Origin: Bacilli bacterium
GTDB lineage: Bacteria; Bacillota_I; Bacilli_A; RF39; UBA660
Assembly (NCBI GenBank): GCA_017462455.1
Contig: JAFTRC010000056.1
Span: 12,078 to 76,077 of the forward strand
DNA: 64,000 nucleotides
Reading direction: 5' to 3'
The translations under genes and the position numbers were made by a program. The notes beneath the pieces were generated by a model. It was not told where the DNA came from and made no database searches. It worked only from the letters and a program-made list of their open reading frames with translations. Of this stretch, positions 14,255 to 39,567 are shown one piece after another (position 1 is the stretch's first letter; the number at the start of each line of letters is the position of its first letter).

Positions 14255-14283
14255 TTGAGTATTTTTAAGAGATATGTTATAAT
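14255..14283 (+). promoter_or_regulatory. sigma-A-type promoter TTGAGT-17 nt-TATAAT with TGt extension, at the head of the 25-kb locus
   Basis: TTGAGT at 14255-14260 and TGtTATAAT at 14275-14283. An AGGTGA RBS and the ATG at 14310 follow. Confidence 0.6.
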
Positions 14284-14309
14284 TGATTATAGTAAAAGTA
14301 GGTGAAACT

Positions 14310-14375
14310 ATGAAGGGATTTTTTAAATTAATTTTAGTATTTATTTTTTACATTTTTTATTATAGATATTTGTAG
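14310..14375 (+). other. short ORF encoding a signal-peptide-like N-terminus (MKGFFKLILVFIFYIFYYRYL*), out of frame with the large ORF that follows
   Basis: Good RBS (AGGTGA) and promoter. Two T6 tracts at 14344-14349 and 14353-14358. Loss of one T fuses it to the 14386 ORF. Confidence 0.6.
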
Positions 14376-14385
14376 TGTACGTGCT

Positions 14386-16716
14386 GTGGATTATAATGGA
14401 AGCGGTGGTAGTACAAACGGAGGAGGTTCCTTGGGAACGGGATCTTGGAAATTTGGTAAAGGACTTACTGGTATAAAAATTACATTAACTGATGGTCAAA
14501 GAAATAGTGAGAAAAATCCTCTTTGTAGTTTTGATGTAACTAGAGCAGAATTAGAGGATTATTATAATTTTACCGATATTAATAAATGGTGGACTTCATC
14601 TGATTCGGTAAATTCAACTTATTTATATTCTTATTTAAATATTCCATATAGTTCTAATTCTGGTAATTATAATAGTTTATTATGGTTTATTCAAAGTTAT
14701 TGTGCTCCTGTAACAATTACTAACGATACTTTTATTTATATTGAGCCTTTTGCCTCTAAAGGAAATACTCTTTATACGTTACACCAATTATTAATTAATG
14801 GTCCTGAATCAAATGATGGGGCAGCGGCAAGAATTTTAGCTAATGCAGCTTCTACTGGTACTTCTATTGGAGTTTATACAGCTGTAAGTGGTAGTTGCAC
14901 TAAAGATTCTTGGATTGGTGGAAAACGTTGTGGAGTAAATACATATGGCGGAAATGGATATGGTGTTATTGAAATAAAAGCAAGTGAAATTCAAAATTGG
15001 GATCCACCTAAGCCTGTCCCAGACATTCAACCAATAAATATGGTTATAACAAAGCTAGATACAAATGGAAATCCTATTTCAGGAGTTACTTTTACTTTAA
15101 CTTATTTAGCCAATAAAACTACTATGACTGCCACAACTAATTCAGACGGTGTGGTTACATTTAATGATTTGACATCTGCTTATTCGGATAATACAGCTAA
15201 TCCAGTTTATACATTGACCGAGACTGTACCTAGTGGATATAATCCTGAAAGTTCTGTTTTGCATTATGAGGATTATGGTATAGGAAATAGAGCTCCAGAT
15301 GATACTACTAGTACAACATCTGTGTGGAATATATATGTTGTAGATAAAAGTAGGTTTTTAACTGTACAGAATGAAAAAACTTGTATTTCTGAATTTAATT
15401 CAATAGATAAAAATGATTTATCCGAAAGAATTAGATTATATAAAACATATAAAAGTTCTGATAACATGTATTTAAATAATTTGCTTAATTTAAACATAAC
15501 AGATGCTGATACAGCTTGTAGTTATAAAGCTTGTAATCAATCTATTGATTCTGGGTGTTTAGCTATAACCAATGTGACAACAAATCAAAAAGATTTTTCT
15601 TGTTATGATTTTATGGTTAATAATGAAGATATATATTGTTTTTCAAATTTTGATTTACAAAACTTGTTTTCGGGTTCACCAAGTAGAGGAACTTATCAAT
15701 TTGGTCAAAGCAAAACGTTATTTGCTGGGCAACTTATAACAAACTTGCAGAATGCTGCTCAGTTAACCTTAGATATATACTGTTATTCCTCTAATGATGT
15801 AGGCGATTCACTAAATATTAATAAAAAATATAGTGATTTTATTTCAAAGATAACTTTTAAATATGATGATCTGGAATTAGGCTATGAAAATAAAAATAAT
15901 AGTATAGTATTAACAAATAAATCAAGTAATTATGGAGGATATGTATATTCTTCAAACACTACTTCGTATTTTACTTTTCCTAAAGTATATTCTCATATTG
16001 TAGATGGGAAAATAAAATATGATATAACAAATGAAGAAAAGAACTCTGGACGATATAGAGAGTTGGGTTATGGTTTGGCTAGTAAATTAGATGATGTTAT
16101 GAAAAATAATAAAGAAATAGATATAAAATATTCTGTTTATTTTGGGGAAACTGTAACAGTTAGAGATAGTTATAGTAATGTTGGGGATAATGACAAATAT
16201 ACAGATTCTAATTCTTGTAGCTATATTTTGAAAAATAATATAATAGAAAATCCTGGAGACCCAAATAATCCTGAAGAATTAAATCTAGAATTCAGATTAA
16301 TAGATGGTACCATTTCTGATAGTTCTCAATCATCAACTATAAATTTATTTCCCGGAAAATTAGGTAACGGAAGAAAAGTAGGAAGCAATTGGTGTAAACA
16401 TAATATAACGGCTTGTGCTAGTAATGATAAATTTACATATGATGAAATTAATATGGAGCCTGTCACAAATGGAATAAATAGCTATGGTATAAAACCTAGT
16501 GATGGTTCTGCTTATAAAGCTAAGTATACAATAGAACTTGATGCATCAACTATACAAAAAATTAGAACTTATAATGATAGTGTAGGTTATGATGAGTATG
16601 ATTTAACTTGTGATGAGAATGGCAACTGTGAAAAAAGTAAATTTTTAATGGATACTAGTATTTGGAATTCTGATAATTTAGAAATAATTACAGATGAATC
16701 TGCTAGAAGAAGATAG
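14386..16716 (+). CDS. large Cys-containing surface protein with SpaA/Cna-B-type fold region (adhesin-like); apparently frameshifted away from its signal peptide
   Basis: VITKLDTNGNPISGVTFTLT...TTNSDGVVTFNDL...YTLTETVPSGYNPE matches the prealbumin-like SpaA/Cna-B repeat pattern. The GTG start at 14386 has no RBS. Confidence 0.65.
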   Translation: MDYNGSGGSTNGGGSLGTGSWKFGKGLTGIKITLTDGQRNSEKNPLCSFDVTRAELEDYYNFTDINKWWTSSDSVNSTYLYSYLNIPYSSNSGNYNSLLWFIQSYCAPVTITNDTFIYIEPFASKGNTLYTLHQLLINGPESNDGAAARILANAASTGTSIGVYTAVSGSCTKDSWIGGKRCGVNTYGGNGYGVIEIKASEIQNWDPPKPVPDIQPINMVITKLDTNGNPISGVTFTLTYLANKTTMTATTNSDGVVTFNDLTSAYSDNTANPVYTLTETVPSGYNPESSVLHYEDYGIGNRAPDDTTSTTSVWNIYVVDKSRFLTVQNEKTCISEFNSIDKNDLSERIRLYKTYKSSDNMYLNNLLNLNITDADTACSYKACNQSIDSGCLAITNVTTNQKDFSCYDFMVNNEDIYCFSNFDLQNLFSGSPSRGTYQFGQSKTLFAGQLITNLQNAAQLTLDIYCYSSNDVGDSLNINKKYSDFISKITFKYDDLELGYENKNNSIVLTNKSSNYGGYVYSSNTTSYFTFPKVYSHIVDGKIKYDITNEEKNSGRYRELGYGLASKLDDVMKNNKEIDIKYSVYFGETVTVRDSYSNVGDNDKYTDSNSCSYILKNNIIENPGDPNNPEELNLEFRLIDGTISDSSQSSTINLFPGKLGNGRKVGSNWCKHNITACASNDKFTYDEINMEPVTNGINSYGIKPSDGSAYKAKYTIELDASTIQKIRTYNDSVGYDEYDLTCDENGNCEKSKFLMDTSIWNSDNLEIITDESARRR

Positions 16717-16779: not shown

Positions 16780-18354
16780 ATGGATAGTATGATATTAAAG
16801 AAACCTTATGCATTTTTTATTAAGATGTTTAAACCAATTCACCTTATATTAGCTATTTTAACAGCTTATTTAATTTATTTAGATAATAAAATATTAACAT
16901 TTTTTAATGAGTATATATATTCAAATATCAATGTTGTTGGAGAAAATATTAGTGAAAATTTAGTTAATAATTTTCTTTATATAATACCTATAATAATTAT
17001 TGTTTTTTCAATGATTATATTTGGAATAATGTATAATAAAAAGAAACCTACTTTATTTTATATATTTAATATACTAGCATTTATCGTAGTTATAATAATA
17101 AATATATATACAATTAGTTTTATAAATGTATTGGAGAAAAGTGTTGTTTCTATAAAAATGGTTAAATTAATTCATGATTTGGTTGTTATAAATATGGGGC
17201 TATCTAGTTTATCTTTTGTATTTCTTATTATAAGAGGTATAGGTATTAATTTTAAAAAATTTAGTTTTGATAATGATATATCTAAAATGGATATAACTGA
17301 AAGTGATAAAGAGGAATTTGAAGTTAACATAAATATTGATATTGATGAGAAAAAAAGGCAAAGAAAAGAAAAATTTAGAAAGTTAAAATATTCATATGTA
17401 GAAAATAAATTTTTAATTAATTTATGCATTATTATAGTTTTGGTTGTTATAGTGATTGCTACAATATTAATAATAAATTTACGTAATAAAGAAAATGTTG
17501 AGGGTAATATTTATAGTGTTTCTACATTTAATTTTGGAGTAACTTCAACAACTATACTTAATACTGATTATAAAGGTAATACAATAACTGATGAATATTT
17601 AATAGTTGTAGATACTAAACTTATGTCTAATTATTCTGGAAAATCATTATATTTGAAAGATTTTAGTTTGAGAATAGGTGAAGCTATTTTTAAACCTACA
17701 AAGAAGTATTCTGAGAATTTAAAAGATTTAGGAACGCTTTATGATGGACAAAATTTAGAAAATCAATTTAATAATTATTTATTTGTATATGAAATATCAG
17801 AAAAATATATAGAAAGTGATATGTATTTTAGCTATAGTGATCAAGGAAAAAATATAAGTATAAAATTAAATCCTAAAGAAATTATTAGTACTGAAATATC
17901 AGTTACAAAACAAATGAATGAAGAAATATCTTTTGAGGATTCTTTAGGAAATATTAAGTTTAAGATTAATGAATATGAAATTAAGGACAAATATTTGATT
18001 GAGTATAATTATTGCATAAAAGATAATGATTGTTTGTTATCTCGCGAATATTTGAATCCTACAATAAATAAAAACTTTGATAAGACTATATTAAGATTGG
18101 GTGTAGAATATAGTTCAAATACTAATTTAGATATAAATACTTTTTATAAATTTTTCTCACAATTTGGATCTATTAGTTATAAAATAGGTGATAATTGGTA
18201 TGAACAAAGTAGTTCTTTCGAAGAAATAAAAAGTAATAAAGTAAGTGATAAAGTCAATACTTATATAGGTGTAAATGAAGTAATAATGAATGCAGAATCT
18301 ATTAAGTTAGTATTTAATATTAGAGGAGCTAAGTACGAATACGTATTAAAGTAG
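16780..18354 (+). CDS. polytopic membrane protein with large C-terminal extracytoplasmic domain, unknown function
   Basis: About 5 N-terminal TM helices, a charged linker, a further TM helix (LCIIIVLVVIVIATILII), then about 290 aa of soluble domain. Confidence 0.55.
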   Translation: MDSMILKKPYAFFIKMFKPIHLILAILTAYLIYLDNKILTFFNEYIYSNINVVGENISENLVNNFLYIIPIIIIVFSMIIFGIMYNKKKPTLFYIFNILAFIVVIIINIYTISFINVLEKSVVSIKMVKLIHDLVVINMGLSSLSFVFLIIRGIGINFKKFSFDNDISKMDITESDKEEFEVNINIDIDEKKRQRKEKFRKLKYSYVENKFLINLCIIIVLVVIVIATILIINLRNKENVEGNIYSVSTFNFGVTSTTILNTDYKGNTITDEYLIVVDTKLMSNYSGKSLYLKDFSLRIGEAIFKPTKKYSENLKDLGTLYDGQNLENQFNNYLFVYEISEKYIESDMYFSYSDQGKNISIKLNPKEIISTEISVTKQMNEEISFEDSLGNIKFKINEYEIKDKYLIEYNYCIKDNDCLLSREYLNPTINKNFDKTILRLGVEYSSNTNLDINTFYKFFSQFGSISYKIGDNWYEQSSSFEEIKSNKVSDKVNTYIGVNEVIMNAESIKLVFNIRGAKYEYVLK

Positions 18355-18361: not shown

Positions 18362-19021
18362 ATGAAAAAATATATATTGTTTTTAATTATTGCTTTATTC
18401 ACTTTTTATGATGTTAATGCTTTAAGTTATGGTGGATGTGATTATTCTGTCATATCTAGACTAAAATCTTTAGTTACTAATGTAAATACAACATATGATT
18501 ATCATATGGAAAATAATACTCCTGTTTTTGATTTAACTATAACTAATGTAACTTCAGATATGTATTTTGTTGACAGTATAACTGATAGAACTTATTATTA
18601 TAGTGACACTAATAATGGTGAGATAACTATATATGGATATAATGTTAGTTCTGGAAATTTGAGATTTTATTCAAATGTTGGAGAGTGTTATGGAGTTAAA
18701 TTAGGGACAAAATATTATAATTTTCCTAAATATAATATTTATTATAATAATTCTCTTTGCTCTGATATACCAAATTTTAGTTTGTGTCAAAAATGGATTG
18801 ATGTAAATTACTCATATTCGGAGTTTAAAAAATTAGTTTTAGAGTATAAAAATAAACAAATAGATCAGGAAGAACAAATACAAGTAGAATATCAAAAAGG
18901 TTTATTTGATAAGCTGATAGAGTTTTATGTAAATTATTATTACATTATTTTAGGATTAATTATTATAGTATGTGGAATTGTTATATTTATAAAAAGTAGA
19001 AATAATAAATTTAATTTATAA
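18362..19021 (+). CDS. secreted Cys-containing protein with C-terminal TM anchor, unknown function
   Basis: Signal peptide MKKYILFLIIALFTFYDVNA and C-terminal helix YYIILGLIIIVCGIVIFI. Confidence 0.55.
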   Translation: MKKYILFLIIALFTFYDVNALSYGGCDYSVISRLKSLVTNVNTTYDYHMENNTPVFDLTITNVTSDMYFVDSITDRTYYYSDTNNGEITIYGYNVSSGNLRFYSNVGECYGVKLGTKYYNFPKYNIYYNNSLCSDIPNFSLCQKWIDVNYSYSEFKKLVLEYKNKQIDQEEQIQVEYQKGLFDKLIEFYVNYYYIILGLIIIVCGIVIFIKSRNNKFNL

Positions 19022-19111
19022 ATATTGGTTGTTAAAAAAAATAAAATGTGATAAAATTGTTATGTATAGTAGAGGCTATATTATTTTGCGTATGTATAGG
19101 TGGGTGATAAC

Positions 19112-19513
19112 TTGAAAGAGTCCATGTGGGGATATGCTGTTATTGTTCTTGGTGTGCTTGCAGTTGGAATCATTTGGTTCTTTGCAAATGTTACTAAAAC
19201 GGATCAGCACAATTATAACTTACTCAAAGAAACAGTAGAAGCGGCAATGATAGACTCAGTTGATATATCTTATTATAGGGCTGAAGGTGAAGTTAGGATT
19301 ATAGAAGAAAATTTTGTTGCTAATTTCATTCGTAGATTTGCAGAAAATGCTGATTTATCAAATGAATACAAAATCGAAATATTTGATGTTAATGAAATAC
19401 CACCTAAGGTAAGCTTGAGAATATCAAGTAGAAATAAAACTAGTGCAACAGGCGAAGTTGTGGAATTTAATATAGTTAATAATATAGATGCTATAATAGA
19501 AACAAAATATTAG
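19112..19513 (+). CDS. small N-terminally anchored protein, pilin/pseudopilin-like (probable TTG start)
   Basis: AGGTGGGTGA RBS precedes the TTG at 19112, giving MKESMWGYAVIVLGVLAVGIIWFF. The leader resembles those of the ORFs at 23354, 23623 and 24114. Confidence 0.5.
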   Translation: MKESMWGYAVIVLGVLAVGIIWFFANVTKTDQHNYNLLKETVEAAMIDSVDISYYRAEGEVRIIEENFVANFIRRFAENADLSNEYKIEIFDVNEIPPKVSLRISSRNKTSATGEVVEFNIVNNIDAIIETKY

Positions 19514-19533: not shown

Positions 19534-20391
19534 ATGAATAATTTTGTTATAGGTTTAAAAAGATTTTTTACAAATAAGAATGTAGTTACAATATTACTTG
19601 TTTTAGTTATATTGGTAGTTCTTTATTTTGGATATAGTTCAAGTATAAAGAAACAAACTCAACCTGTAAATGTACCTGTGGCTGCTAGAACTATAGGGGC
19701 ACAAACAGAAATTACAAGTGAGGATGTAACTTATAAACAAGTAGCTAGCCGTATGGTTGATACAAATGTTATACGTTCATCTGCTTTAATAATTGGAAAA
19801 TATACTAATGTAAATGTTACAATACCAGAAGGTAGTGTATTCTATCAAGAATGGTTGGCTGAAGCAGAAGATGTTCCTGGAAACTGGATTGAACAATTAG
19901 ATTATGAAAAAGGTGAACTTGGATATTATATGGATGTTACTGTAGAAAGTACATTAGGAAATAATGTTTTACCAAATTCTTATATTGATATGTATATGAA
20001 AGCTACTGATGAAAATGGAACTATTATGTTTGGTAAATTAATGAAAAATGTAAAAGTATTGGTAGTACATGATGGAAGTGGTAAAAATGTATTTGCTAAT
20101 TCAACAGAAATAGGAAGTCCTTCTAAAATAGGATTTGCAGTAAATCAAGATATGTATATATTACTTAAAAAAGCTGATTATTTAAATATTGATTTAGTAA
20201 TTGCACCACGTGGAGCTACTGTTCCAACTGAAGATTATGTAATTGTTACAAGTGCTACTTTAAGAGATTATATAGATGCACAAACTATTACAGTTGAAGA
20301 AGATATTATTGTTGAAGAAATTCCAGAGGATAATACACAAACTAATGATGAGACTGCTACAGATAATCAAAATACAACTGTAACAGAATAG
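19534..20391 (+). CDS. CpaB/RcpC-like Flp pilus assembly protein (N-terminal TM + SAF-like domain)
   Basis: TM helix, then PVNVPVAARTIGAQTEITSEDVTYKQV, as at the start of CpaB SAF domains. Positioned directly upstream of the ATPase. Confidence 0.6.
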   Translation: MNNFVIGLKRFFTNKNVVTILLVLVILVVLYFGYSSSIKKQTQPVNVPVAARTIGAQTEITSEDVTYKQVASRMVDTNVIRSSALIIGKYTNVNVTIPEGSVFYQEWLAEAEDVPGNWIEQLDYEKGELGYYMDVTVESTLGNNVLPNSYIDMYMKATDENGTIMFGKLMKNVKVLVVHDGSGKNVFANSTEIGSPSKIGFAVNQDMYILLKKADYLNIDLVIAPRGATVPTEDYVIVTSATLRDYIDAQTITVEEDIIVEEIPEDNTQTNDETATDNQNTTVTE

Positions 20392-20400: not shown

Positions 20401-21579
20401 ATGCACGATAACATTTTCGAGGGGATGGACTTTGGTCCGTTAAAAGAATATTTAGAAAATGATGATATTACCGATATTTCTTATAGCAATAATGGGCAAG
20501 TGTGGTTAAAAACTTTATCTAAAGGTATATTTAGAGTAGATAATCCTGCAATAAATAATAACTTTATAGAAAAGTTAGCTTTCCAATGTTCGAATGTTAT
20601 GGGTAAAAGTTTCAATGCTGCTCATCCATTTCTGGACAGCGAAAGTGCTGAATTACGTATGAATTTTGTGCACGATTCTATAGCTAGAAATGGTATTGCT
20701 TGCGTTATTCGTAAGACACCGGCTAAGATACGTTTGGAAAGAAATAAAATTTTACAAGAAAAATATGTAACAGAAGATATATTAGATTTCTTAATAACTT
20801 GTGTACATGGGCATTGTAATATAATAGTATGTGGAGAAACTGGTAGTGGTAAAACGGAATTTGTAAAATTCTTAGCTGCTCATACGTATGAAAATGAAAA
20901 GTTAATTACAATAGAAGATACACTTGAGTTACACCTTGATAGAATATATCCTAATCGTGATATAGTAGCTATGAAAACTAATAATATAGCAAGTTATTCA
21001 GATGTACTTGTTACTTGTATGAGACAGAATCCAAAATGGATTTTGTTATCGGAGGTTCGTAGTGCGGAAGCTGTAATGGCTGTTAGAAACTCAATTTCAT
21101 CAGGGCATTACATTTTATCAACAATCCATGCTGATAAAGCTGCTTCTATACCAAACCGTATGTATAGTTTGTTAGAAACCAATCAAGATATAGATCAATT
21201 CTTAAAATCTATTTATAGATATATACAATTAGGTGTATATATACGTGGTTATCAAGATAAAGTAACTAAGAAATTCGTAAGAGAGATAGCTGAAGTTACA
21301 GAATTTTATGTAACAGAAGATAATGAAGCAAAATATAATACTCTTTACAAAAAGACACCAGATGGTGCAATATATAGAAAAAATCCTAGTAAGTATTTAG
21401 TTGAGTACTTAGAAGCTCAAGGAACTAAATTACCTCAAGGATTTATAAAAGCTGAATATGATGAAGATAAAGATGGTGGAGAAAGTGCTGATGAATTAGT
21501 TAAAGATACAATGAATGTTGTACCACCAACTAATACAGTACCACAAACACCTCAACAAAACGAAATAATTTTCGAATAG
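20401..21579 (+). CDS. CpaF/TadA-type secretion ATPase (T2SS/T4SS E family, VirB11-related)
   Basis: Walker A VCGETGSGKTE, Walker B-like KWILLSEVR, and His-box GHYILSTIHA. Confidence 0.85.
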   Translation: MHDNIFEGMDFGPLKEYLENDDITDISYSNNGQVWLKTLSKGIFRVDNPAINNNFIEKLAFQCSNVMGKSFNAAHPFLDSESAELRMNFVHDSIARNGIACVIRKTPAKIRLERNKILQEKYVTEDILDFLITCVHGHCNIIVCGETGSGKTEFVKFLAAHTYENEKLITIEDTLELHLDRIYPNRDIVAMKTNNIASYSDVLVTCMRQNPKWILLSEVRSAEAVMAVRNSISSGHYILSTIHADKAASIPNRMYSLLETNQDIDQFLKSIYRYIQLGVYIRGYQDKVTKKFVREIAEVTEFYVTEDNEAKYNTLYKKTPDGAIYRKNPSKYLVEYLEAQGTKLPQGFIKAEYDEDKDGGESADELVKDTMNVVPPTNTVPQTPQQNEIIFE

Positions 21580-21590: not shown

Positions 21591-22493
21591 ATGAATACGA
21601 CTTTACTTTTTATTATAGTTGCTGCACTACTTATATTTTTAATAATATATAGAAGTAGTGTTGGAGAACAAACTTATAAGTATCTTAAGGTACAAGGTGG
21701 TAAATTATATAGTAAAGTTGCTCCTTATACATATAAAGAAATTAGAAAGAAAATTAAAGATTTAGGGCAAGATTATACAGTTCAACAATATATTGGACAG
21801 GTATTGTTGTTTGCGGCTGGTGGAGGTATAATTACATATTTATATTTCTATAACATAATTGTATCTATAATATATGCTGTAGTTGCAGTAACTGTTGTTC
21901 CTTATATTAATTATTTAAGATGTAAAAGACTTTATAGTGAATTTGTTTTTGAACAAATACAAGTTTATACTACTAACGTTATAATGGAATTTGCCACTAC
22001 TCAAAGTTTTGTTAAAGCTTTGGAGGGGGTATATTCTTCTGGAGTTTTAGAAGATCCTGTAAAAGAAGATGTTAAGGCTATGATTGATATGGCATATGAA
22101 AATGGAACTATAAATCAATCATTAGAATATATGAATGAAAAATATGATTATTATATGGTTAGAAATATGCATCAATTATTCCTTCAAATAACAAATGAAG
22201 GTTCTAAGGATGCTAGTGAATCTTTAGAAAACATGTCACAAGACATAGATATGCTTGTTGAAAATGTTTATAGAGATAGACTTGACAGAGCTGCGTTCTA
22301 TAAAAAATTTATTACTTTTGGTTTGATTTTATATTTAATGATAGGTTTAGTACAAATAATGTTAGGTGATACGTATCATCAAATGTTAGACTTGTGGTAT
22401 GTAAATTTATTATTACACCTAATAGTAATAATTAATTCTTACTTCTTATTAGCAGGAACAAAATATTATAATGAGAATGTGGGGGCTGAATAA
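21591..22493 (+). CDS. TadB-like platform membrane protein (T2SS F-family-like)
   Basis: 300 aa with an N-terminal TM, central helices, a helical cytoplasmic region and C-terminal TMs. Position immediately after the ATPase is the main argument. Confidence 0.5.
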   Translation: MNTTLLFIIVAALLIFLIIYRSSVGEQTYKYLKVQGGKLYSKVAPYTYKEIRKKIKDLGQDYTVQQYIGQVLLFAAGGGIITYLYFYNIIVSIIYAVVAVTVVPYINYLRCKRLYSEFVFEQIQVYTTNVIMEFATTQSFVKALEGVYSSGVLEDPVKEDVKAMIDMAYENGTINQSLEYMNEKYDYYMVRNMHQLFLQITNEGSKDASESLENMSQDIDMLVENVYRDRLDRAAFYKKFITFGLILYLMIGLVQIMLGDTYHQMLDLWYVNLLLHLIVIINSYFLLAGTKYYNENVGAE

Positions 22494-26000: not shown

Positions 26001-26008
26001 GTGATTTG

Positions 26009-27279: not shown

Positions 27280-27290
27280 TAGGAGGGTTT

Positions 27291-28843: not shown

Positions 28844-28853
28844 TATTACAACA

Positions 28854-31653: not shown

Positions 31654-32170
31654 GTATACTGATGTACCTGTAAAAAATATAGCTAATGGTGTTATTGTGC
31701 TTGATAATAATCAAAAGGTTACTGGAGTTAAAATAATGCCAAGAAATATTTTCATACTTGATCAAAGTATACAAGATGCGATTATAATGAATCTTAAAAA
31801 TGTTTATAATGCTATTGATTATGAATTTTGGATTGTAGTTGCAGATAGACCTGTAGATATAAATGTATACTTATCTCAATTACAACTTTTGTATAATCAA
31901 ATAAATGATACTAAGAAAAGAAAATTGATTTTGGAAGATATTAATAAGGCTAATATGTTTATGAATAATAATGTTGTTGATACAGAATATTTCTTATTAT
32001 TTAAAGATAAAAATAATGATGTATTACAAAAGAGAATTCGTAATCTTATAAATAATTTTGCAAGTGCAGGGTTAACTGCATTTCAAACAAATAATGATGA
32101 TTTAAGAATGATTCTTGATAATTTCTTGAATGGTGGTCAAACTACTACTTTTGGGACGGTGTTAGCATAA
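31631..32170 (+). CDS. VirB4/TcpF-type ATPase, N-terminal segment encoded as a separate ORF
   Basis: The ATG at 31631 gives MAKEIKSKYTDVPVKNIANGVIVLDNN. The TAA stop overlaps the ATG of the next ORF (ATAATG). Confidence 0.55.
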   Translation: MAKEIKSKYTDVPVKNIANGVIVLDNNQKVTGVKIMPRNIFILDQSIQDAIIMNLKNVYNAIDYEFWIVVADRPVDINVYLSQLQLLYNQINDTKKRKLILEDINKANMFMNNNVVDTEYFLLFKDKNNDVLQKRIRNLINNFASAGLTAFQTNNDDLRMILDNFLNGGQTTTFGTVLA

Positions 32171-33954
32171 TGGATATTAGAAGTCAAATTGCTCCAAAGG
32201 GATTGGAGTTTAAACCAAATCAATTTGTTATAAGTGACAAACATGCTTGTATTTTAACTATAATAAGTTATCCTAAGTTTATTTATCCTGGATATTTAAG
32301 TAGTTTAACAAGTATGTCAGGAATAAAGGTAGTAATTAAGCATATACCTCTTCCTTTTAGTAGTATGAGTAAAATGCTTAATAAAGAACTTGCTGATTTA
32401 AAGCAAAGATATCAAGAAGAAAAAGATAAAACTATTCAAGAAAGAATAAGACAAGATTATGAATCATTAGAGATGTTTATAAGTGAATTAGCCGCTAGTC
32501 AATCTAAGATATATGATTTCCAAATGCATGTAATGATAACTGCTAATACTCAAGAAGAATTAGAAGGTAAAAAATTACAAGTAAAAAATTATTTAGAAGC
32601 TATGGAAATGAGAGCAATACCGCTTAGATTTGAACAAGATAAGGTATTAAAATCAATTCTACCAATTTATGAAAAACAAGATATAGAAGATAGAATAGGA
32701 ACTCCTATTCCTTCTCCAACAATAGCTGCTATGTATCCTTTTATATTTGATAGTATTAAAGATCCAGGATTATCTACATTACTTGGTATAGATTTTTCTG
32801 GTGGTGTAATTTTATTTAACCAATTCTTATATCAAATAAAGAAGGAACACAATCGTAATAATGCTAATATGATTATTTTGGGTACTTCTGGTAGTGGTAA
32901 ATCTACTGCAGCTAAGTTGCTTTTAAGAAGTCATATTAGAAATAATAATCAAATAGTAGTTATAGATCCAGAAGGAGAATTAGAAGAAATGACTAGTTCT
33001 TTTGATGGAGATTTTATCAGTTTAGGAAAAGGTGGATCTTTTGGTATGATTAATCCGCTTGAAGTCATAGTAGATGCTGATGAAGAAGAGATGAAACAAG
33101 GATTAGGATATACTGTTTTAACTCGTACTTTACAGACAATAAAAGCATTTTTAAAATACTATGATCCTAGTATTGAAGAAGATGTGGTTAATATGTTTAG
33201 TGAAGTTGTTCAAGAAACATATAAACGTTTTGGTATAGATTTTAATGTAGATTTTACTAAGTTTAAGTCAGAGGATTATCCTACTTTTAAAGATGTATAT
33301 GCAACTATAAAAGGTAGAATTTTATCTATGGCAGAAAAATCTCAAGAAAAAGATGTTCTTGAAAAATTAGAAATAAAAATAAGACCAATAGTTAAAGAAT
33401 TGAAATACTATTTTGATGGACATACAACTATAAAACCAAGAAGTAATTTTATAGTATTTAATATAAGAGAAATTATGAATGCAGATAAAAACATTAGAAA
33501 TGCATTATTCTTCAATATATTAAAATATGCCTGGGGATTAACTTTAGATAGTTCTATAAACACTGTAATGATGGTAGATGAAGCTCACGTATTGCTTAGT
33601 GGAGGAAATACATTGGGAGCAGACTTTTTAGCACAAATTCAAAGACGTGCGAGAAAGTATAATACTGGAACAATTATAATAACACAACAACCAACAGACT
33701 TTAGTGATCCTAGTGTAATAACACAAGGTAAAGCTATATTTGATAATGCTTCTTATTATTTAGTAATGGGATTAAAGAAACAAGCTGTTGATGATTTAGC
33801 TAAATTAATTGACTTAAACGATAACGAAAAAGAAAGTATTAAACAATATCAACAAGGTGAAGCTTTATTCGTTTGTGGAAGCAGGCGTATGAGAATAAAT
33901 GTAATTGTATCAGATGAAGAATTAGAATCATTTGGTAGTGGTGGAGGATTATAA
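32170..33954 (+). CDS. VirB4/TcpF-type T4SS ATPase (main part)
   Basis: Walker A ILGTSGSGKST, Walker B VMMVDEAHVLL, and IIITQQPTDF. Confidence 0.85.
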   Translation: MDIRSQIAPKGLEFKPNQFVISDKHACILTIISYPKFIYPGYLSSLTSMSGIKVVIKHIPLPFSSMSKMLNKELADLKQRYQEEKDKTIQERIRQDYESLEMFISELAASQSKIYDFQMHVMITANTQEELEGKKLQVKNYLEAMEMRAIPLRFEQDKVLKSILPIYEKQDIEDRIGTPIPSPTIAAMYPFIFDSIKDPGLSTLLGIDFSGGVILFNQFLYQIKKEHNRNNANMIILGTSGSGKSTAAKLLLRSHIRNNNQIVVIDPEGELEEMTSSFDGDFISLGKGGSFGMINPLEVIVDADEEEMKQGLGYTVLTRTLQTIKAFLKYYDPSIEEDVVNMFSEVVQETYKRFGIDFNVDFTKFKSEDYPTFKDVYATIKGRILSMAEKSQEKDVLEKLEIKIRPIVKELKYYFDGHTTIKPRSNFIVFNIREIMNADKNIRNALFFNILKYAWGLTLDSSINTVMMVDEAHVLLSGGNTLGADFLAQIQRRARKYNTGTIIITQQPTDFSDPSVITQGKAIFDNASYYLVMGLKKQAVDDLAKLIDLNDNEKESIKQYQQGEALFVCGSRRMRINVIVSDEELESFGSGGGL

Positions 33955-33975: not shown

Positions 33976-36414
33976 ATGCCAGAGGAATATGAAAATTTAG
34001 AAGGACAAGAACAAAGTCCTGAAGCTCAAAGATTATCTGAAGCTCAGATGAAGAAACAGCGTAATGTTGCCAACAATGCTAATAATGTTAAAGCTGCAGC
34101 AGACATCGCTTCAAAGAGTGCTAATCCATATGCTAAAGCTATTGGAGGAGCCGTTAAAGTTGCTGATAAGATTAGTGGTGGAAAAGCTTCTGAAAAATTA
34201 GGTAAAGCCTTGAATACTGCTAATAAATTAACACCTGGTGGAAGAATTGCTCAAGGAATGTTAAATAAAATGAGTGAAAGTGGAACCACAGATAGGATAA
34301 ATAAGGCAGTAAATAAAAAAAATCAGACTAGAACTCAAAATATGGCTAGTATGAAAGGTAGTTCAGAAGTTCCTGGTAAGGATTCTGGAAGTTCATTAGA
34401 TAGAAGAGAAGTAGAAGACAATACATCTGATGTGGGAGAGGTTAATTTAAAAGCAACCGCTAAATTTTTAAAAATTGCTTTTCCAGTGATGATGGCAGCT
34501 GTTGTGTTAGTAGTATTTGTTGGTTTATTTATGATTCCCGCGATGGCTGTTGAAAGTTTATTTGGTATAGGAAGTGCTGATGAAGTTTCAGATTCAGAAT
34601 TTAATGACAAAATGGGTAATGTTAAAGAGAGTGACTTAGAGGAAGATAATGCTAAATCTGATCAAACTTTCGAATATGATTTGTTTATTGATAATGAATC
34701 AACTAAATTTAGGAACTCTAAATTGAAGAAGATAAATAAGTTTAGACAATATAATGAAGCAGATATTGAGGAATTAAAAGATTATTATCCAGATATAGAT
34801 AGTTATGTAGATGAAGCAGGAAATAATATGAATACTGTTTATACTTTTTTCTTTAAACTACATTATTTATATAAACATTATGATAATAAGTATAATGTAG
34901 AATTAGATATGCCTTTATTAATGTCTACTTTGACAGTTAAGGAAAAGGATATGAATATAGTATTTAATTCAAATATTATAGGTTATGGTTACACTCAATA
35001 TAAAGAAGGAGAGAATTATTCTAAATTTTTATATGGAGCTGAACGTATTTATAATTCTACAGAAAAAAATGCTAAATATGATATAGAAGTATTAGCTGAA
35101 AATATGGTATCGCAAGTACCTTATAATGCAGAAGATGAAGAAAATACTTGTACTCAAACAGAAGCAGTAGCTGGTATGTGTTATAAAGTAGATAATGATA
35201 AATATAAGGAATTTTTAAAAACTTTTTTAGCAGAAAAGTATTCTATAGATGATGAAACTCAAGTTAAGGGGCTAATAGTTCAAATTTATGATGTTAAAGA
35301 GCAATATGAGGATTTAGTTGGTGATTACGAGGAACAAGAACCTACAATAAATTCAGCTACTTCTACTACGTATTGGTGGCCAATAGGTAGTAAAGAAACC
35401 ACTGTTGTAGATGGAAAAACATTTGCTACAGGGGATCCGGAAACCACAATTGTAACCTCTCCGTATGGTTATAGATCAGATCCAATAACAGGAGCAAGAA
35501 AGTTGCACACTGGTGTGGATATAGCTGGTGGTAGTGGTTTAGGTAATGTAAATATAATTGCTGCACGTGATGGTGTAGTTGTTTATCCAACAAAAGGTGC
35601 AAATACGTCTTGTCCTTCAAATTATAGTAGTACAAGTTATAATTGTAGTAGTGGGGCATATGGAAATTATGTAATTATTCAACATAGTGATGGTAATTAT
35701 ACTTTATATGGACATTTACATGCCAATACAATAACTGTAACTGCTGGTGATAGTGTAAAGCAAGGTCAAGTTATAGGTAAGATGGGTACTAGTGGATATT
35801 CAACTGGGGCACATTTGCACTTTGAGGTTAGAGAAGGTGCTAATTCATATTATTCAACTGTAGAACCTTTAGGATATATTTCTGCAGAAAATCCACGTAT
35901 TGTATCAACAGGAGGAGAATTTTTATCTTGGTTAAATAGTTGGGAAGGACATTCTCCTATTAGCGGAGATTATTATATTGTAGAAGATATTGGCGATGGA
36001 GTTAGAACTGTTGGCGGTGGTGTTACTTTGGAACACAATGCAGGTAGATTTGCTGCCTATGGAATAGACATAAATGATTATCCAGTAGGAAGCCAAATTT
36101 CTAAGTCTATTGTAGATTCAATACAATTAGAGGAGATAGCTTCTAAAAGAAGCTATATTGAAAATGTATTATCTAATAATTCAATAGTATTAGAAGAAAA
36201 ACAAATTCAGGCTTTAGTTTCACAAATGTATAACTGTGGAAATATAAATGGATTTGTAGCTGCATATAAAGAATATGGAAATACTGATACTTTCTATGAT
36301 AATTGGTTTTTTAGAAATATAATGAGAGGTTCACAGTTTGAAAAGGGGTTAACTCGTAGAAGAAATGCTGAGTGGTCACTGTTTCATGCGGGAGAATATA
36401 TCTATAATGGTTAG
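33976..36414 (+). CDS. membrane-anchored bifunctional cell-wall hydrolase (M23 peptidase + lysozyme-like domain), TcpG/VirB1 analogue
   Basis: M23 motifs HTGVDIAG and GAHLHFEVR. The C-terminal WEGHSP...GGGVTLEHN...QMYNCG resembles phage-type lysozymes. TM helix at about aa 170-195. Confidence 0.8.
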   Translation: MPEEYENLEGQEQSPEAQRLSEAQMKKQRNVANNANNVKAAADIASKSANPYAKAIGGAVKVADKISGGKASEKLGKALNTANKLTPGGRIAQGMLNKMSESGTTDRINKAVNKKNQTRTQNMASMKGSSEVPGKDSGSSLDRREVEDNTSDVGEVNLKATAKFLKIAFPVMMAAVVLVVFVGLFMIPAMAVESLFGIGSADEVSDSEFNDKMGNVKESDLEEDNAKSDQTFEYDLFIDNESTKFRNSKLKKINKFRQYNEADIEELKDYYPDIDSYVDEAGNNMNTVYTFFFKLHYLYKHYDNKYNVELDMPLLMSTLTVKEKDMNIVFNSNIIGYGYTQYKEGENYSKFLYGAERIYNSTEKNAKYDIEVLAENMVSQVPYNAEDEENTCTQTEAVAGMCYKVDNDKYKEFLKTFLAEKYSIDDETQVKGLIVQIYDVKEQYEDLVGDYEEQEPTINSATSTTYWWPIGSKETTVVDGKTFATGDPETTIVTSPYGYRSDPITGARKLHTGVDIAGGSGLGNVNIIAARDGVVVYPTKGANTSCPSNYSSTSYNCSSGAYGNYVIIQHSDGNYTLYGHLHANTITVTAGDSVKQGQVIGKMGTSGYSTGAHLHFEVREGANSYYSTVEPLGYISAENPRIVSTGGEFLSWLNSWEGHSPISGDYYIVEDIGDGVRTVGGGVTLEHNAGRFAAYGIDINDYPVGSQISKSIVDSIQLEEIASKRSYIENVLSNNSIVLEEKQIQALVSQMYNCGNINGFVAAYKEYGNTDTFYDNWFFRNIMRGSQFEKGLTRRRNAEWSLFHAGEYIYNG

Positions 36415-36423
36415 GTGATAAAA

Positions 36424-36951
36424 ATGAGAGATAAGTCTAAATTAACTGCTATTATCTTAGTTATAATTACTATAGTAGTAGTTGTAATATCTTTTTTTAC
36501 AAAAACGAGTGAACAAAATCAAGTTGGAGATATAAATATAGTTACAAATTATAGTAATTTTTATACAGTTGATTCTTGTCTTTATAGAACTGTAACTTAT
36601 ATGTCTTCTAAAGATAAAGAAAGTTTATACCTTATTTTAAGCGATAATTATAAAAAAGAAAATAATATATCAGAGGAGAATGTTATAGATGTAATTGGAA
36701 CTGTTGGAGAAAATTCAACTTTTATAACGAAAAAAATGTATTATCAAGATATTAACGATAATATAACTAAATATTATGTATATGGAATAATTCAAGAAAA
36801 TTATTTATTTGAAGAAGAAACTGTTAAAGAGTTAGAATATATAGATAAGTATTTTATAGTATATTTAGATACAACAAATAAAACATTTTCTATAGAACCT
36901 TATTCTAAAGAGTTATTTGAAAAATTAGGCGGTGATAGTAATGAAGGATAG
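36424..36951 (+). CDS. small N-terminally anchored protein, VirB8/TcpC-sized candidate
   Basis: TM helix LTAIILVIITIVVVVISFF plus about 150 aa of soluble domain. Assignment is by position and size only. Confidence 0.4.
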   Translation: MRDKSKLTAIILVIITIVVVVISFFTKTSEQNQVGDINIVTNYSNFYTVDSCLYRTVTYMSSKDKESLYLILSDNYKKENNISEENVIDVIGTVGENSTFITKKMYYQDINDNITKYYVYGIIQENYLFEEETVKELEYIDKYFIVYLDTTNKTFSIEPYSKELFEKLGGDSNEG

Positions 36952-37411
36952 TCCTATAAAAATATTTATTATTGTTGTTGTATTACTGTCAATATTTACA
37001 GGCGCTTACTTATTAATAAAGCATTTTATTGAAGATGATTCTTTAGAATATGAAGAATATTTAAAAAATTATGAGGTTAACGAGTATATAGCAACATATG
37101 TTACTGATGAAGATATGGCTAGAAGATATTTAAATGATTATATACATAATATGTATTTTGATATAGAATATGCCTATAGTTTATTAGATGAAGAGTATAG
37201 AAATAAAAAATTTGGAAGTTTAGAAAGTTATAAGAATTATGTATATTCTTTAACTTATTCGACATATCAGATGGAGCGTTATTATAAAACTTCAAAAGAT
37301 GGTTATTTGATATTTGGTGTTTATGATAATAATGGAAATATATTTATATTTAAGACAAAAGGAGTTATGCAGTATAAAGTTTATTTAGATGATTATACAG
37401 TAGAAATATAG
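36941..37411 (+). CDS. small N-terminally anchored protein, VirB8/TcpC-sized candidate
   Basis: TM helix IFIIVVVLLSIFTGAYLLI plus about 130 aa. Overlaps the previous ORF. Confidence 0.4.
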   Translation: MKDSPIKIFIIVVVLLSIFTGAYLLIKHFIEDDSLEYEEYLKNYEVNEYIATYVTDEDMARRYLNDYIHNMYFDIEYAYSLLDEEYRNKKFGSLESYKNYVYSLTYSTYQMERYYKTSKDGYLIFGVYDNNGNIFIFKTKGVMQYKVYLDDYTVEI

Positions 37412-37419
37412 GTGATAAG

Positions 37420-39510
37420 ATGAAATTAAGGTTTAGAGCTGATGCTAAAGACGTTATAATATTTTGTATATTTGCAGTAGTATGGTTATTTGTAGTAGCT
37501 TTTGCGGTAGCTAATGTTTCTGCTTTTTTAAACGGAGAATCTTTTACTTTTAATCCGTTTTTAGGATTTTTACCTCAAAATTTGGCAGCAACTTTAATAT
37601 GTTTTGTTGCTGGTATTGTAGCTGCTTTTGTTGGAGTAAAATCAGTTTTCTTTGAAAAGGAAGATGAGAGAGGAATAGGACTTTCTATAGGCCAAAAAAA
37701 AGAAAAAAATTACTCTAGATGGGCAAAAGATAGTGAAATAGAAAAAGGTATAGATGTTAAAGCAGTTGATCCTTTATCTCCTAAAGCGGATGCTGCAGGA
37801 ATTCCTTTAAAAATGACACCTAAAAAAGTATGGGTTGATAATGGTGGATATCATAATCTTGTAATAGGTTCTACTGGTGCTGGTAAAACTCAAACTACAG
37901 TTTTACCTATGGTAAACTTACTTGCTAAGCACGATGAATCTATGATTATAACAGACCCTAAGGGAGAAATTTATGAAAATACTTCTAATTATTTAAAAAG
38001 TTTAGGATATAACATAGTTCTTTTAAACTTTCGTGATCCACAACAGGGAAATGCTTGGAATCCTATGTATTTACCATATTCGTTATATAAAGATGGTAAT
38101 ATAGATAAGTCAGTAGAGTTACTTGAAGATTTAGCTGCTAATATATTAAAAGATCCAAGTGCTAAAGGACAAGACCCTTTCTGGGAAAACACTTCTGCAG
38201 ATTATTTTGCAGGTTTAGCATGTGCTTTATTTGATGATGCTAAAGAGGAAGAAATAAACTTAAATAGTATAAGTTTAATGACAACAATTGGAGAAGAAAA
38301 ACTAGCTAATACAACTTACGTTAAGGATTACTTTAGTTATAAAGATCCAGCAGGAACTGCTTATACTAAGGCTTCATCAACTTTGATGGCTCCAAGTGAA
38401 ACTAAAGGTAGTATTCTATCAGTATTTAAGCAAAAAATACAATTGTTTGCTTCGCGTGCTAATTTATCAGAAATGTTAGCTAATAATGATTTTGATATGC
38501 GTGATATAGGTAGAAAAAAAACAGCTGTATTTATAGTTATTCAAGATGAAAAAACTACTTATCACTCATTAGTTACAATTTTCTTAAAACAATGTTATGA
38601 AACATTAATTTCAGTTGCACAAGAATCTGGCGGAAAATTACCACATAGAACAAACTTTATTTTGGATGAGTTTGCTAATATGCCACCATTAAAAGACGTT
38701 ACAACAATGGTAACAGCTGCTCGTTCAAGAAATATAAGATTTACATTTATTATTCAAAACTTTGCTCAATTATATGAAGTATATGGTAAAGAAAATGGAG
38801 AAACTATCAAAGGTAACTGTGGTAATATAGTTTACTTAATCAGTACAGAGTTATCTGCTTTAGAGGAGATAAGTAAGATGTGTGGTGAAGTTAAATCTAA
38901 AGAAAAAGAAAAGACTTCATCAACGCCTCTTGTTACAGTTAGTGATTTACAAAGACTTAGTCAATGGGAAACAATAATAATAAGACTTAGAACAATGCCT
39001 TTTAAAACAAAATTAACTCCAAACTTCAAAATGAATTGGGGACATAATTTTCCTAAGGCTACTTATCCTCAAAGAGAAAAAAATCCAGTTGAAATATTTG
39101 ATTTAAAAGCTTTTGTAAATAAAAAAAGAGAAGAAAAAATAAATAATATGTTAAATGGAGATTCCCCTGTTGGAGGAGAATCAAAGAGTCCCTTTGGTGG
39201 AGGAGGAATGCCATTTAATCCATTTATGGATTCCGGTAATGCTCCTAAGCCATCAGGTGGTGGCGGATTTAATGTTGATGATTTAGTTAAAAGAATAGAT
39301 GCTAAAATAGCAGAACTTGAAGAAGAAGAAAGACAAGAAAAAGCTAAATTAGAAGCAGAAAATGAATCTAAGGTTGAACCTAAAATAGAAGAATCTAATA
39401 TTGTTTCTTCTGAAAATATTATTAAAAATACTCAAATTAAAGAAGAAAAAACACATAAGAGTGGTATTACAGATGATCAATTTTTTGATGATTTCTTCTT
39501 TGATGAATAA
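37420..39510 (+). CDS. VirD4/TraG-family type IV coupling protein
   Basis: Two N-terminal TM helices, Walker A IGSTGAGKTQT, Walker B NFILDEFANMP, and RSRNIRFTFIIQNFAQL. Confidence 0.85.
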   Translation: MKLRFRADAKDVIIFCIFAVVWLFVVAFAVANVSAFLNGESFTFNPFLGFLPQNLAATLICFVAGIVAAFVGVKSVFFEKEDERGIGLSIGQKKEKNYSRWAKDSEIEKGIDVKAVDPLSPKADAAGIPLKMTPKKVWVDNGGYHNLVIGSTGAGKTQTTVLPMVNLLAKHDESMIITDPKGEIYENTSNYLKSLGYNIVLLNFRDPQQGNAWNPMYLPYSLYKDGNIDKSVELLEDLAANILKDPSAKGQDPFWENTSADYFAGLACALFDDAKEEEINLNSISLMTTIGEEKLANTTYVKDYFSYKDPAGTAYTKASSTLMAPSETKGSILSVFKQKIQLFASRANLSEMLANNDFDMRDIGRKKTAVFIVIQDEKTTYHSLVTIFLKQCYETLISVAQESGGKLPHRTNFILDEFANMPPLKDVTTMVTAARSRNIRFTFIIQNFAQLYEVYGKENGETIKGNCGNIVYLISTELSALEEISKMCGEVKSKEKEKTSSTPLVTVSDLQRLSQWETIIIRLRTMPFKTKLTPNFKMNWGHNFPKATYPQREKNPVEIFDLKAFVNKKREEKINNMLNGDSPVGGESKSPFGGGGMPFNPFMDSGNAPKPSGGGGFNVDDLVKRIDAKIAELEEEERQEKAKLEAENESKVEPKIEESNIVSSENIIKNTQIKEEKTHKSGITDDQFFDDFFFDE

Positions 39511-39532
39511 ACTAATTAACTTTATAAATTAA

Positions 39533-39567
39533 AACCACCCTCATATAATGTATTAGGGTGGTTATTT
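39533..39567 (+). terminator. Rho-independent terminator at the end of the 25-kb locus
   Basis: aaccaccct / agggtggtt forms a 9-bp stem followed by ATTT. Confidence 0.6.

Follow-up and report, generated by a model that had tools for sequence, protein, structure and literature searches.

The window analysed here, a 64,000-nt stretch of contig JAFTRC010000056.1 from a Bacilli bacterium of order RF39 in the Genome Taxonomy Database (GTDB), contained a locus of about 25 kb in which genes for a secretion ATPase and pilin-like proteins were followed by genes for components of a Gram-positive type IV secretion system (T4SS). Listing of the open reading frames (ORFs) gave 25 ORFs, designated g01 to g25, all on the + strand between 14311 (14386 for the intact part of g01) and 39510 and separated by junctions of -83 to +106 nt. 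An earlier sequence-only reading had described the same co-directional arrangement with short or overlapping junctions, but its count of about 27 ORFs was too high. As that reading had also stated, housekeeping genes lay at both borders: scpB/scpA on the - strand (12918-14200) to the left, and the rhodanese, rmuC and DUF2238 genes (39568-41559) to the right. GC content ranged from 22 to 32% across the AT-rich window, with no compositional break at the locus. The features of the locus, in window positions, were as follows.

14255..14283, + strand: promoter-like site (TTGAGT, 17 nt, TG-TATAAT) upstream of g01, from a consensus scan only
14311..16716 (intact ORF 14386-16716), + strand: g01, secreted SpaA-domain adhesin-like protein (PF17802 SpaA, 3.5e-8)
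16780..18354, + strand: g02, conserved polytopic membrane protein whose large C-terminal domain lies outside, without family match
18362..19021, + strand: g03, conserved secreted protein containing Cys and anchored in the membrane at its C-terminus, from sequence features
19100..19513, + strand: g04, DUF5411 membrane-anchored protein (PF17424, 7e-50)
19534..20391, + strand: g05, CpaB/RcpC-like SAF-domain protein with an N-terminal anchor (TIGR03177 CpaB, 1.1e-7; FlgA C-terminal domain, 4e-6; both below the family cut-off)
20401..21579, + strand: g06, CpaF/VirB11/FlaI-family secretion ATPase (PF00437 T2SSE, 2.5e-26)
21591..22493, + strand: g07, putative first platform protein (TadB-like), about 69% conserved, without direct family match
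22493..23284, + strand: g08, putative second platform protein (TadC-like), without direct family match; profile match on plasmid pHT-beta
23354..23599, + strand: g09, small pilin-like protein of Flp size; N-terminus MKEAAG|EAN, then a hydrophobic helix and a tail rich in Cys
23623..24102, + strand: g10, pseudopilin-like protein of TadE/F size, with M(K/R)ExxG at the N-terminus and then a hydrophobic helix
24114..24533, + strand: g11, second pseudopilin-like protein, N-terminal pattern as in g10
24551..25552, + strand: g12, conserved cytoplasmic protein without Pfam, NCBIfam or PDB-profile match
25563..26000, + strand: g13, VirB2-like paralogue a, with signal peptide, two-helix hairpin and Cys-rich tail (sequence features, PF18895 family scan)
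25988..26776, + strand: g14, VirB2-like paralogue b, with an N-terminal Cys-rich extension (sequence features, PF18895 family scan)
26794..27279, + strand: g15, VirB2-like paralogue c (PF18895, 6.5e-3)
27264..28406, + strand: g16, membrane-anchored outside protein, no family in Pfam/NCBIfam scans
28466..28843, + strand: g17, VirB2-like paralogue d (PF18895, 3.5e-4)
28853..28899, + strand: composite terminator/promoter, a 17-bp-stem hairpin plus T-run with the -35 box TTGATT in the loop and TG-TATAAT downstream
28949..31309, + strand: g18, VirB6-like channel protein of extended form, its C-terminal tail long and coiled/charged (PF19597 TrbL_4, 6e-9)
31333..31653, + strand: g19, small membrane protein, VirB3-like (matches the fused mycoplasma VirB4 profile at positions 2-77)
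31571..32170, + strand: g20, VirB4 N-terminal-domain protein as a separate ORF (NF045975 positions 105-276, 1e-12)
32170..33954, + strand: g21, VirB4 ATPase (NF045975, 2e-102; CD1110, 2e-51; AAA_10/P-loop_TraG)
33976..36414, + strand: g22, membrane-anchored cell-wall hydrolase with M23 peptidase (PF01551, 1e-22) and lysozyme (PF00959, 3e-5) domains, VirB1 role
36415..36951, + strand: g23, N-terminally anchored small protein, VirB8-sized, from size/topology only
36932..37411, + strand: g24, N-terminally anchored small protein, VirB8-sized, from size/topology only
37420..39510, + strand: g25, VirD4 coupling protein (PF02534, 3.5e-57; NF045973, CD1115 family)

In the right half (g18 to g25), the VirB6-like, VirB3-like, VirB4, M23 plus lysozyme and VirD4 labels of the sequence-only reading were all borne out by profile searches, as for a monoderm conjugative T4SS of the MPF_FATA-like pAW63/pHT-beta subtype. 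The g18 protein matched, besides TrbL_4, the profile of the membrane protein Mbov_0396 (4e-11) of the mycoplasma integrative and conjugative element (ICE). The g21 protein, 78-97% identical in relatives and carrying the motif GTSGSGKST, aligned to positions 295-893 of NF045975, the fused VirB4 profile of mycoplasma ICEs. As g19, g20 and g21 aligned to consecutive parts of this profile, they were taken to be a VirB3-like protein, a VirB4 N-domain and the VirB4 ATPase, respectively. The g19 family profile detected the DUF5592 protein of the conjugative plasmid pHT-beta (6e-5) and an ORF on a Mycoplasmatota plasmid (2e-10), and the g20 profile an ORF upstream of VirB4 on the latter; counterparts of g20 in relatives were TraC-like. 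A pseudogene was ruled out as the origin of the split, since the three ORFs were intact in all relatives and in pHT-beta, and the arrangement is thus native rather than a product of decay. The domain make-up of the hydrolase varied in relatives (CHAP, M23, lysozyme), CHAP and M23 being separate genes in the related locus L004, and the g23 position held one to four small anchored-type genes. The g25 protein, 58-85% identical in relatives, scored 297 bits against NF045973 (cut-off 250) and contained GSTGAGKTQT. It ended in a conserved acidic/aromatic tail, DDQFFDDFFFDE, that was nearly invariant in three sequences, with one substitution within the final 12 residues. Such a tail is reminiscent of the partner-binding tails of other coupling proteins.

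The left half was arranged like a Tad locus, the order tadA-tadB-tadC-flp-tadE-tadF being mirrored by the ATPase, two membrane proteins, and one small plus two mid-sized pilin-like genes. The predicted g06 ATPase contained the Walker motif GETGSGKTE quoted earlier. Its best NCBIfam models included VirB11 (3e-34), the conjugation-associated ATPase TadA (7e-27) and TrbB, and in the PDB it matched FlaI (4e-18), CpaF (2e-17) and HP0525 VirB11 (6e-16). By these scores it is equally near to FlaI, CpaF and HP0525 VirB11, so that the earlier CpaF/TadA-type label holds at the level of the T2SSE superfamily only. For g07, a weak hhalign match was found to a protein encoded upstream of a T2SSF-annotated gene on the Mycoplasmatota plasmid; otherwise, hhalign comparisons of g07 and g08 with single plasmid proteins gave weak matches or none. 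A broadened g08 profile detected the syntenic pHT-beta ORF 13721-14518 (5e-10) and ORF 12891-13721 (2e-3). Relatives of about 500 aa with a g08-like C-terminal half also occurred and may be g07-g08 fusions. The profiles of g07, g08 and g12 found nothing in the PDB, and a Foldseek search with a g08 model returned only noise from G-protein-coupled receptor/BRIL structures. A Pfam scan of distant g08 relatives gave one T2SSF match (0.0037). The T2SSF similarity of g07/g08 relatives is therefore suggestive only, and the TadB/C labels proposed for this pair, with T2SSF in some relatives and no direct family match, were left unconfirmed.

In g09 to g11 the N-terminus was conserved, reading M(K/R)E(A/S)xG before a hydrophobic helix, and it resembles a class-III (prepilin) signal peptide. 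In g09, whose sequence reads MKEAAG|EANMTV, the stretch MKEAAGEAN was nearly invariant in an N-terminal alignment of 70 loci, and the G/XXXXEY processing motif of Flp was not found. The earlier description of three small pilin-like proteins was thus upheld as regards a common processing-site-like N-terminus ending in Gly, but not as regards the Flp motif. A weak profile match connected g11 with the small pHT-beta ORF 14536-14898. In g12, a degenerate P-loop-like stretch, GVKNxTKQSGA, was noted by eye only.

Four of the five genes g13 to g17 formed a family of hairpin proteins, g16 being the exception. The four copies, already noticed as pilin-like, were related at the DNA level (62-76% identity over 240 nt), and PF18895 was the top Pfam family for 42 of 92 family members, with a best E value of 1.4e-6; on this basis the paralogues are classed as VirB2-like. 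The best-conserved copy was g17, which was the sole copy in many relatives, while g16 occurred in 34 related loci and was limited to part of the clade. Directly after the last VirB2-like gene and before the VirB6-like gene lay the composite terminator/promoter, found at the same place in 14 of 14 relatives (L004-L019). The arms of its stem changed together between species and the loop and -10 box were constant. As this conserved element separates the fibre/docking genes from the translocon genes, it argues for two predicted transcription units, g01-g17 and g18-g25, with attenuation possible after the pilin genes.

Proteins of 208-706 aa that end in a VirB2-like hairpin, fused to a large N-terminal part rich in Cys, were also observed. 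Within the window they were scattered outside the locus (43550-44917 and 59870-61060), and in some relatives they lay between VirD4 and rhodanese (L090, 12015-13871; L092, 13587-15707; L093, 12114-15650). They may be pilin-anchored surface or tip proteins.

Upstream of the ATPase, g01 contained a SpaA domain, in line with the adhesin-like SpaA-fold protein read from the sequence. It was poorly conserved, other large surface proteins taking its place in relatives. Its signal-peptide region was out of frame in the window owing to an extra T in a poly-T run (14344-14349). The metagenome contig L001, which represents the same locus as the window and encodes an identical CpaF protein, had an intact g01 of 801 aa with the poly-T run at 3944-3948, and the two sequences were identical over 330 aligned bases apart from the extra T. 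The frameshift could be due to phase variation of the adhesin by strand slippage, or to an error in assembly. No family was found for g02 in Pfam/NCBIfam scans; it was present in 65 related loci (29-60% identity) and g03 in 64, and g04 lay immediately 5′ of the CpaB-like gene in all relatives compared. The CpaB-like SAF assignment of g05 was retained in part, since the TIGR03177 match fell below the family cut-off; a weak profile match to the SAF protein of the Mycoplasmatota plasmid was also obtained, and a PDB search gave nothing.

Genes for mobility were sought with Pfam/NCBIfam in the locus and in nearly every window ORF of at least 80 aa, and these scans detected no relaxase, integrase, rep or par gene. 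No oriT-like feature was found in the window and no direct (att-like) repeats bracketed the locus. The sequence-only reading had likewise noted neither relaxase, integrase and rep/par genes nor att-like repeats in the locus or at its borders. A homologue of the pHT-beta MobP2 relaxase was found neither in the window nor in 1.8 Mb of related loci. A hidden relaxase is unlikely, since all unassigned locus proteins except g12 carried a signal peptide or membrane anchor as judged from sequence features. When the whole locus was compared with 72,556 plasmids by megablast, no DNA match was obtained, and a known plasmid or ICE sequence was thereby ruled out.

The spread of the locus was followed with the ATPase as query, with tblastn confirmation, in a collection containing one genome per species. 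At least 582 confirmed stretches carried the ATPase. The best 80 of these shared 73-94% ATPase identity, and all came from metagenome-assembled genomes (MAGs) of uncultured gut Bacilli or 'Tenericutes' from rabbit, human, mouse, ruminants and chicken, including a 1.2-Mb circular MAG and 'Ca. Fimihabitans intestinipullorum'. The genus 'Ca. Fimihabitans' belongs to GTDB order RF39, family CAG-822 (PMC8035907), and the attribution of the relatives to RF39 at the order level was based on this one named relative together with MAG labels. More than 120 VirB4 clusters of 87-100% identity were labelled only 'Bacilli bacterium', and g08 and g12 each had thousands of relatives annotated as 'hypothetical'.

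Gene order was kept in every locus that was long enough: g02, g03, variable large surface proteins, DUF5411, CpaB-like and ATPase genes, followed by g07-g12, one to four VirB2-like genes, VirB6, VirB3, VirB4-N and VirB4. In the right half the order was hydrolase(s), one to four small or medium proteins and VirD4, then rhodanese, rmuC and DUF2238. This VirD4-rhodanese-rmuC-DUF2238 junction was retained down to 58% VirD4 identity, and scpA/scpB adjoined the locus in 29 loci. The two halves were never apart in more than 80 related loci, which bears on the question, raised earlier, of whether the Tad-like and T4SS parts co-occur.

Mean pairwise identity was about 79-82% for the ATPase, about 80% for VirB4, 69% for g07 and 64% for g08, against 59% for ScpA/ScpB, and ATPase identity exceeded that of ScpA in 26 of 26 loci. 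Through these comparisons the predicted motor proteins were shown to be under strong purifying selection. Pairwise divergence of the locus proteins was correlated with that of ScpA/B (Spearman 0.51-0.65, 325 pairs), which, because the pairs are not independent, indicates consistency with vertical descent only. The variable parts were the adhesins, the number and N-terminal extensions of the VirB2-like genes, g16 and the hydrolase domains. A conserved site and conserved motors together with variable surface genes suggest a domesticated, selected organelle with diversifying surface parts. The earlier view of a domesticated chromosomal apparatus rather than an ICE is thus sustained, given the same housekeeping neighbours in many species, divergence that tracks the flanks, and no relaxase or integrase found.

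In tblastn searches against plasmids, the ATPase, VirB4 and VirD4 all detected one set of conjugative plasmids from Enterococcus and Bacillus, at 27-31% identity. In the Enterococcus plasmid pHT-beta (pMG1 family), the order was SpaA-type surface protein, small ORFs, CpaF/VirB11, two proteins of about 270 aa, three small ORFs, TrbC/VirB2, VirD4, a pLS20_p028-family membrane protein, DUF5592, VirB4, a two-domain hydrolase and the MobP2 relaxase. The same backbone order was tabulated for pAW63, pXO2 and pBT9727 of the Bacillus cereus group in 2005, with the VirB11 homologue recognised (PMC1196294), and the Mycoplasmatota plasmid carried VirD4, VirB4, SAF, CpaF and T2SSF-family genes together. 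The modules of the locus were collinear with those of the pHT-beta/pMG1 and pAW63/pXO2/pBT9727 plasmids from the adhesin through CpaF/VirB11, pilins, VirB6/VirB3/VirB4 and wall hydrolase to the small anchored proteins; VirD4 was shared as well, and the g08 and g19 profiles matched pHT-beta ORFs at the same positions. As pHT-beta/pMG1 and pAW63/pXO2 share this backbone plus a relaxase, the combination of the two halves is not new, and the earlier proposal of a candidate undescribed machine was not upheld, nor was the idea of an unprecedented or chance hybrid of a CpaF/VirB11-type module and a Gram-positive T4SS. Differences were nevertheless evident. The plasmids carry a MobP2 relaxase, oriT and replication/partition genes, whereas the RF39 locus is chromosomal and lacks these; protein identity between the two groups was only 20-33%; VirD4 stands at the end of the RF39 locus but ahead of VirB6 in the plasmids; there are four VirB2-like genes versus one; and the CpaB-like gene and g12 were not detected on pHT-beta.

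According to a 2025 review (PMC12857230), Gram-positive T4SSs universally lack VirB11 homologues. Contrary to that statement, one Gram-positive T4SS lineage does, judging from its predicted proteins, carry a VirB11/CpaF module: at 11474-15585, within the tra operon, pHT-beta encodes a CpaF/VirB11-family ATPase, two platform-like proteins, small pilin-like ORFs and a TrbC/VirB2 pilin (PF04956, 4e-15). This module might be the reason for the efficient broth mating of pMG1/pHT-beta plasmids, a property reported for them (PMC107514). The VirB11 module of pMG1 was not discussed in the pELF paper, and literature searches found no description of a T4SS in RF39.

By analogy, the closest functional counterpart is taken to be the relaxase-less, pilin-array chromosomal T4SS of Patescibacteria (PMC12102498, PMC10633639, PMC12857230), for example SEML1_0006-0019 of Southlakia epibionticum. 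Like the RF39 locus, it is chromosomal, found in monoderms, derived from conjugation, lineage-wide in a small-genome and largely uncultured group, devoid of a relaxase and equipped with a divergent VirB2-like (PF18895) pilin array. It differs in belonging to another phylum and, in Southlakia epibionticum, in having no recognisable coupling protein or in-cluster CpaF/VirB11 module, type IV pili being encoded outside the T4SS cluster; essentiality has been shown there. Among NCBIfam models, those of the mycoplasma ICE (Mbov_0396/0397; CDS5, 13, 15, 16, 17) matched VirB4 and the VirB6-like protein best, and the VirB3-like, N-domain and ATPase parts were collinear with the fused mycoplasma protein, but the RF39 scores lay below the equivalog cut-offs (343 versus 590 bits), and the RF39 locus is non-mobile and has VirB4 divided over three ORFs. 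According to the review, the mycoplasma apparatus has no VirB1-like or VirB8-like component, and a VirB11/Tad module is not among its listed parts (PMC12857230). With Tad/Flp loci (tadZABC-flp-tadEF of Actinobacteria and Firmicutes, cpa of Caulobacter) the locus shared the upstream CpaB-like SAF gene and the g09-g11 motif ending in Gly, but it differed in having no Flp motif, marginal T2SSF similarity, no TadV in the window, an unconfirmed TadZ, and an ATPase no nearer to CpaF than to VirB11 or FlaI.

On balance, we think it probable, if not strongly so, that the locus derives from a Gram-positive conjugation apparatus like that of pAW63/pXO2/pHT-beta, that it lost the relaxase and mobility genes and is now fixed in the chromosome and inherited vertically, and that it belongs to the core of a large clade of gut Bacilli that are uncultured and have small genomes, likely serving contact-dependent export or exchange with partner cells. 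Unit 1 (g01-g17) would build the docking side, in which the CpaF/VirB11-type ATPase would, together with the two platform-like membrane proteins, assemble or energise a short adhesive fibre of Flp-like and pseudopilin-like proteins and/or VirB2-like pilins, with the variable adhesins giving partner specificity. Unit 2 (g18-g25) would be the translocon: the hydrolase would open the wall, VirB3, VirB4 and VirB6 would form the membrane channel, and VirD4 would pick a cytoplasmic substrate and feed it outwards. The substrate would be a protein or other macromolecule exchanged with a partner cell rather than a mobile element, a view favoured because a relaxase is missing and the locus behaves as a housekeeping or core trait. 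Exchange with partner cells has been proposed in parallel for the essential T4SS of Saccharibacteria (PMC10633639, PMC12102498, PMC12857230).

Several points weigh against this interpretation. The function of the locus is inferred throughout, and a VirD4 that is intact and well conserved would suit DNA transfer just as well. The genome could also carry a relaxase gene outside the sequences searched, namely the window and, for MobP2, the related loci. The target of the ATPase module may be the Flp-like proteins, the VirB2-like pilins or the channel itself. T2SSF (PF00482), although the most recurrent Pfam family, appeared in only 7 of 113 g07/g08 relatives (best E value 0.0015); the AlphaFold2 model of g08, built from a shallow alignment of 78-100% identity, was all-helical and of low confidence (predicted local distance difference test score, pLDDT, 61); and no prepilin peptidase (TadV/CpaA) was found among the window ORFs scanned. 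Two earlier labels likewise found no support: TadZ for g12, which had no Pfam, NCBIfam or PDB-profile match and gave a low-confidence AlphaFold2 model (pLDDT 37), and VirB8 for g23 and g24, whose size and topology fit while Pfam, NCBIfam and PDB searches returned no match.

The main rival is a chromosomal DNA-transfer ('sex') apparatus with a relaxase elsewhere or an unconventional processing enzyme, as in mycoplasma chromosomal transfer, which we regard as possible though rather unlikely. Besides the intact and conserved VirD4, it is favoured by the conjugative nature of the CD1115 family and of all plasmid relatives, and recombination could benefit small-genome lineages. The VirB4 and VirB6-like proteins scored best against profiles of mycoplasma ICEs, elements that drive chromosomal transfer according to the review (PMC12857230), and this affinity keeps DNA transfer under consideration. 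On the other side stand the window without a detected relaxase or oriT-like feature, the 1.8 Mb of related loci without a MobP2 homologue, and a purifying selection stronger than that on ScpA/B across hundreds of species, which would be unusual for a transfer function from which the cell gains nothing directly. Two merely adjacent systems with separate functions, an adhesion pilus of the Tad type and a T4SS, would agree with the composite terminator/promoter, which splits the locus exactly between the pilin genes and the VirB6-like gene. This alternative is improbable given that the halves were never found apart in the related loci, that the same coupling occurs in the unrelated replicons pHT-beta, pAW63/pXO2 and the Mycoplasmatota plasmid, and that the VirB2-like T4SS pilins sit in the 'Tad' transcription unit.

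A DNA-uptake (competence) machine, comparable to Helicobacter ComB or archaeal Ced, appears more improbable still. ComB is not known to have VirD4 or VirB11, and it is the retention of VirD4 and a VirB11-type ATPase in the locus that makes uptake less likely; neither were ComEC/ComEA-type genes found in the locus by Pfam/NCBIfam scans. According to a figure legend of the FEMS review, the T4SSs that import exogenous DNA include ones without a VirD4-type coupling protein (PMC12857230), whereas VirD4 and the VirB11-type protein are conserved here. A chromosomal locus with a pilin array and no relaxase would nonetheless suit uptake, and nucleotide scavenging is possible in small-genome organisms, with precedents for import by T4SSs (PMC9905601, PMC13395361). 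A recent or decaying ICE or plasmid remnant, to which conjugative-element families throughout, an IS4 transposase 2 kb downstream, a Bro-N gene and tRNA-Leu upstream and the frameshifted g01 might point, is very unlikely and already contradicted on comparative grounds, the same site, flanks and intact genes recurring across hundreds of species (the same site at ATPase identities from 94% to 73%), with divergence that tracks housekeeping genes, a transposase position that is not conserved, and no recombinase, integrase or flanking repeats found.

The two flanking features were placed as follows.

12785-12871: tRNA-Leu(CAA), left of scpB, the sole RNA feature detected with Rfam and ARAGORN
41592-42827, - strand: IS4-type DDE transposase (DDE_Tnp_1 plus DDE_Tnp_1_assoc), 2 kb downstream, past the right flank

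The transposase is unlikely to be part of the system, since its position was not conserved among relatives; a 40%-identical IS4 transposase was seen directly after VirD4 in the distant relative L092 (12140-13372). Beside the tRNA gene, also left of scpB, a Bro-N domain protein, a regulator of phage/mobile-element type, was encoded at 11589-12443. It was found in only one related locus besides L001 and may mark a separate small insertion.

Farther to the right, a cassette at 52251-56130 contained a gene for a 616-aa protein without family match (52640-54490), then three small genes and other small ORFs. Of the small genes, that at 55584 was confirmed as DUF4176, and those at 54514 and 55849 were similar by eye. 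The layout resembles polymorphic-toxin/immunity cassettes of the type VII secretion system/LXG type. A TnpB-like zinc-ribbon fragment (50842-51168) lay just after smpB, near which no transfer-messenger RNA was detected by Rfam or ARAGORN. Sporulation-associated genes were located at 56885-59271, with GerQ (spore coat) and DivIC identified by Pfam and SpoVG-, YabP- and YabQ-like genes by eye only; these hint that spore formation may occur in this small-genome lineage.

RF39 is a widespread, almost wholly uncultured gut order with small genomes. The locus is likely central to its lifestyle, since it is kept at one site in hundreds of species and is more conserved than the chromosome-segregation proteins. 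Both the machine type, a little-studied Gram-positive conjugation backbone with a VirB11/CpaF module, and the evolutionary category, a T4SS without relaxase in the chromosome of a reduced-genome lineage such as Patescibacteria, are already known; what seems new is that the machine has become fixed, with no relaxase, in the core of an entire uncultured lineage. RF39 would thus be a second lineage, besides Patescibacteria, with a conjugation machine domesticated without a relaxase, and the VirB11/CpaF module with pilin-like genes is an integral part of one Gram-positive T4SS lineage. Natural variants in adhesins, pilin copy number and hydrolase domains could provide a handle on the Gram-positive T4SS pilus and on VirD4 recognition without a relaxase, and the locus could guide co-culture attempts. 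A further suggestion, tentative and well short of probable, is that RF39-type gut Bacilli depend on contact with bacterial or host cells and that the locus is their interaction organelle, with a VirB11/CpaF-driven VirB2-/Flp-like pilus and delivery or exchange through VirD4. If true, Saccharibacteria would be joined by a second, independent example of a reduced-genome lifestyle that rests on a domesticated conjugation system.

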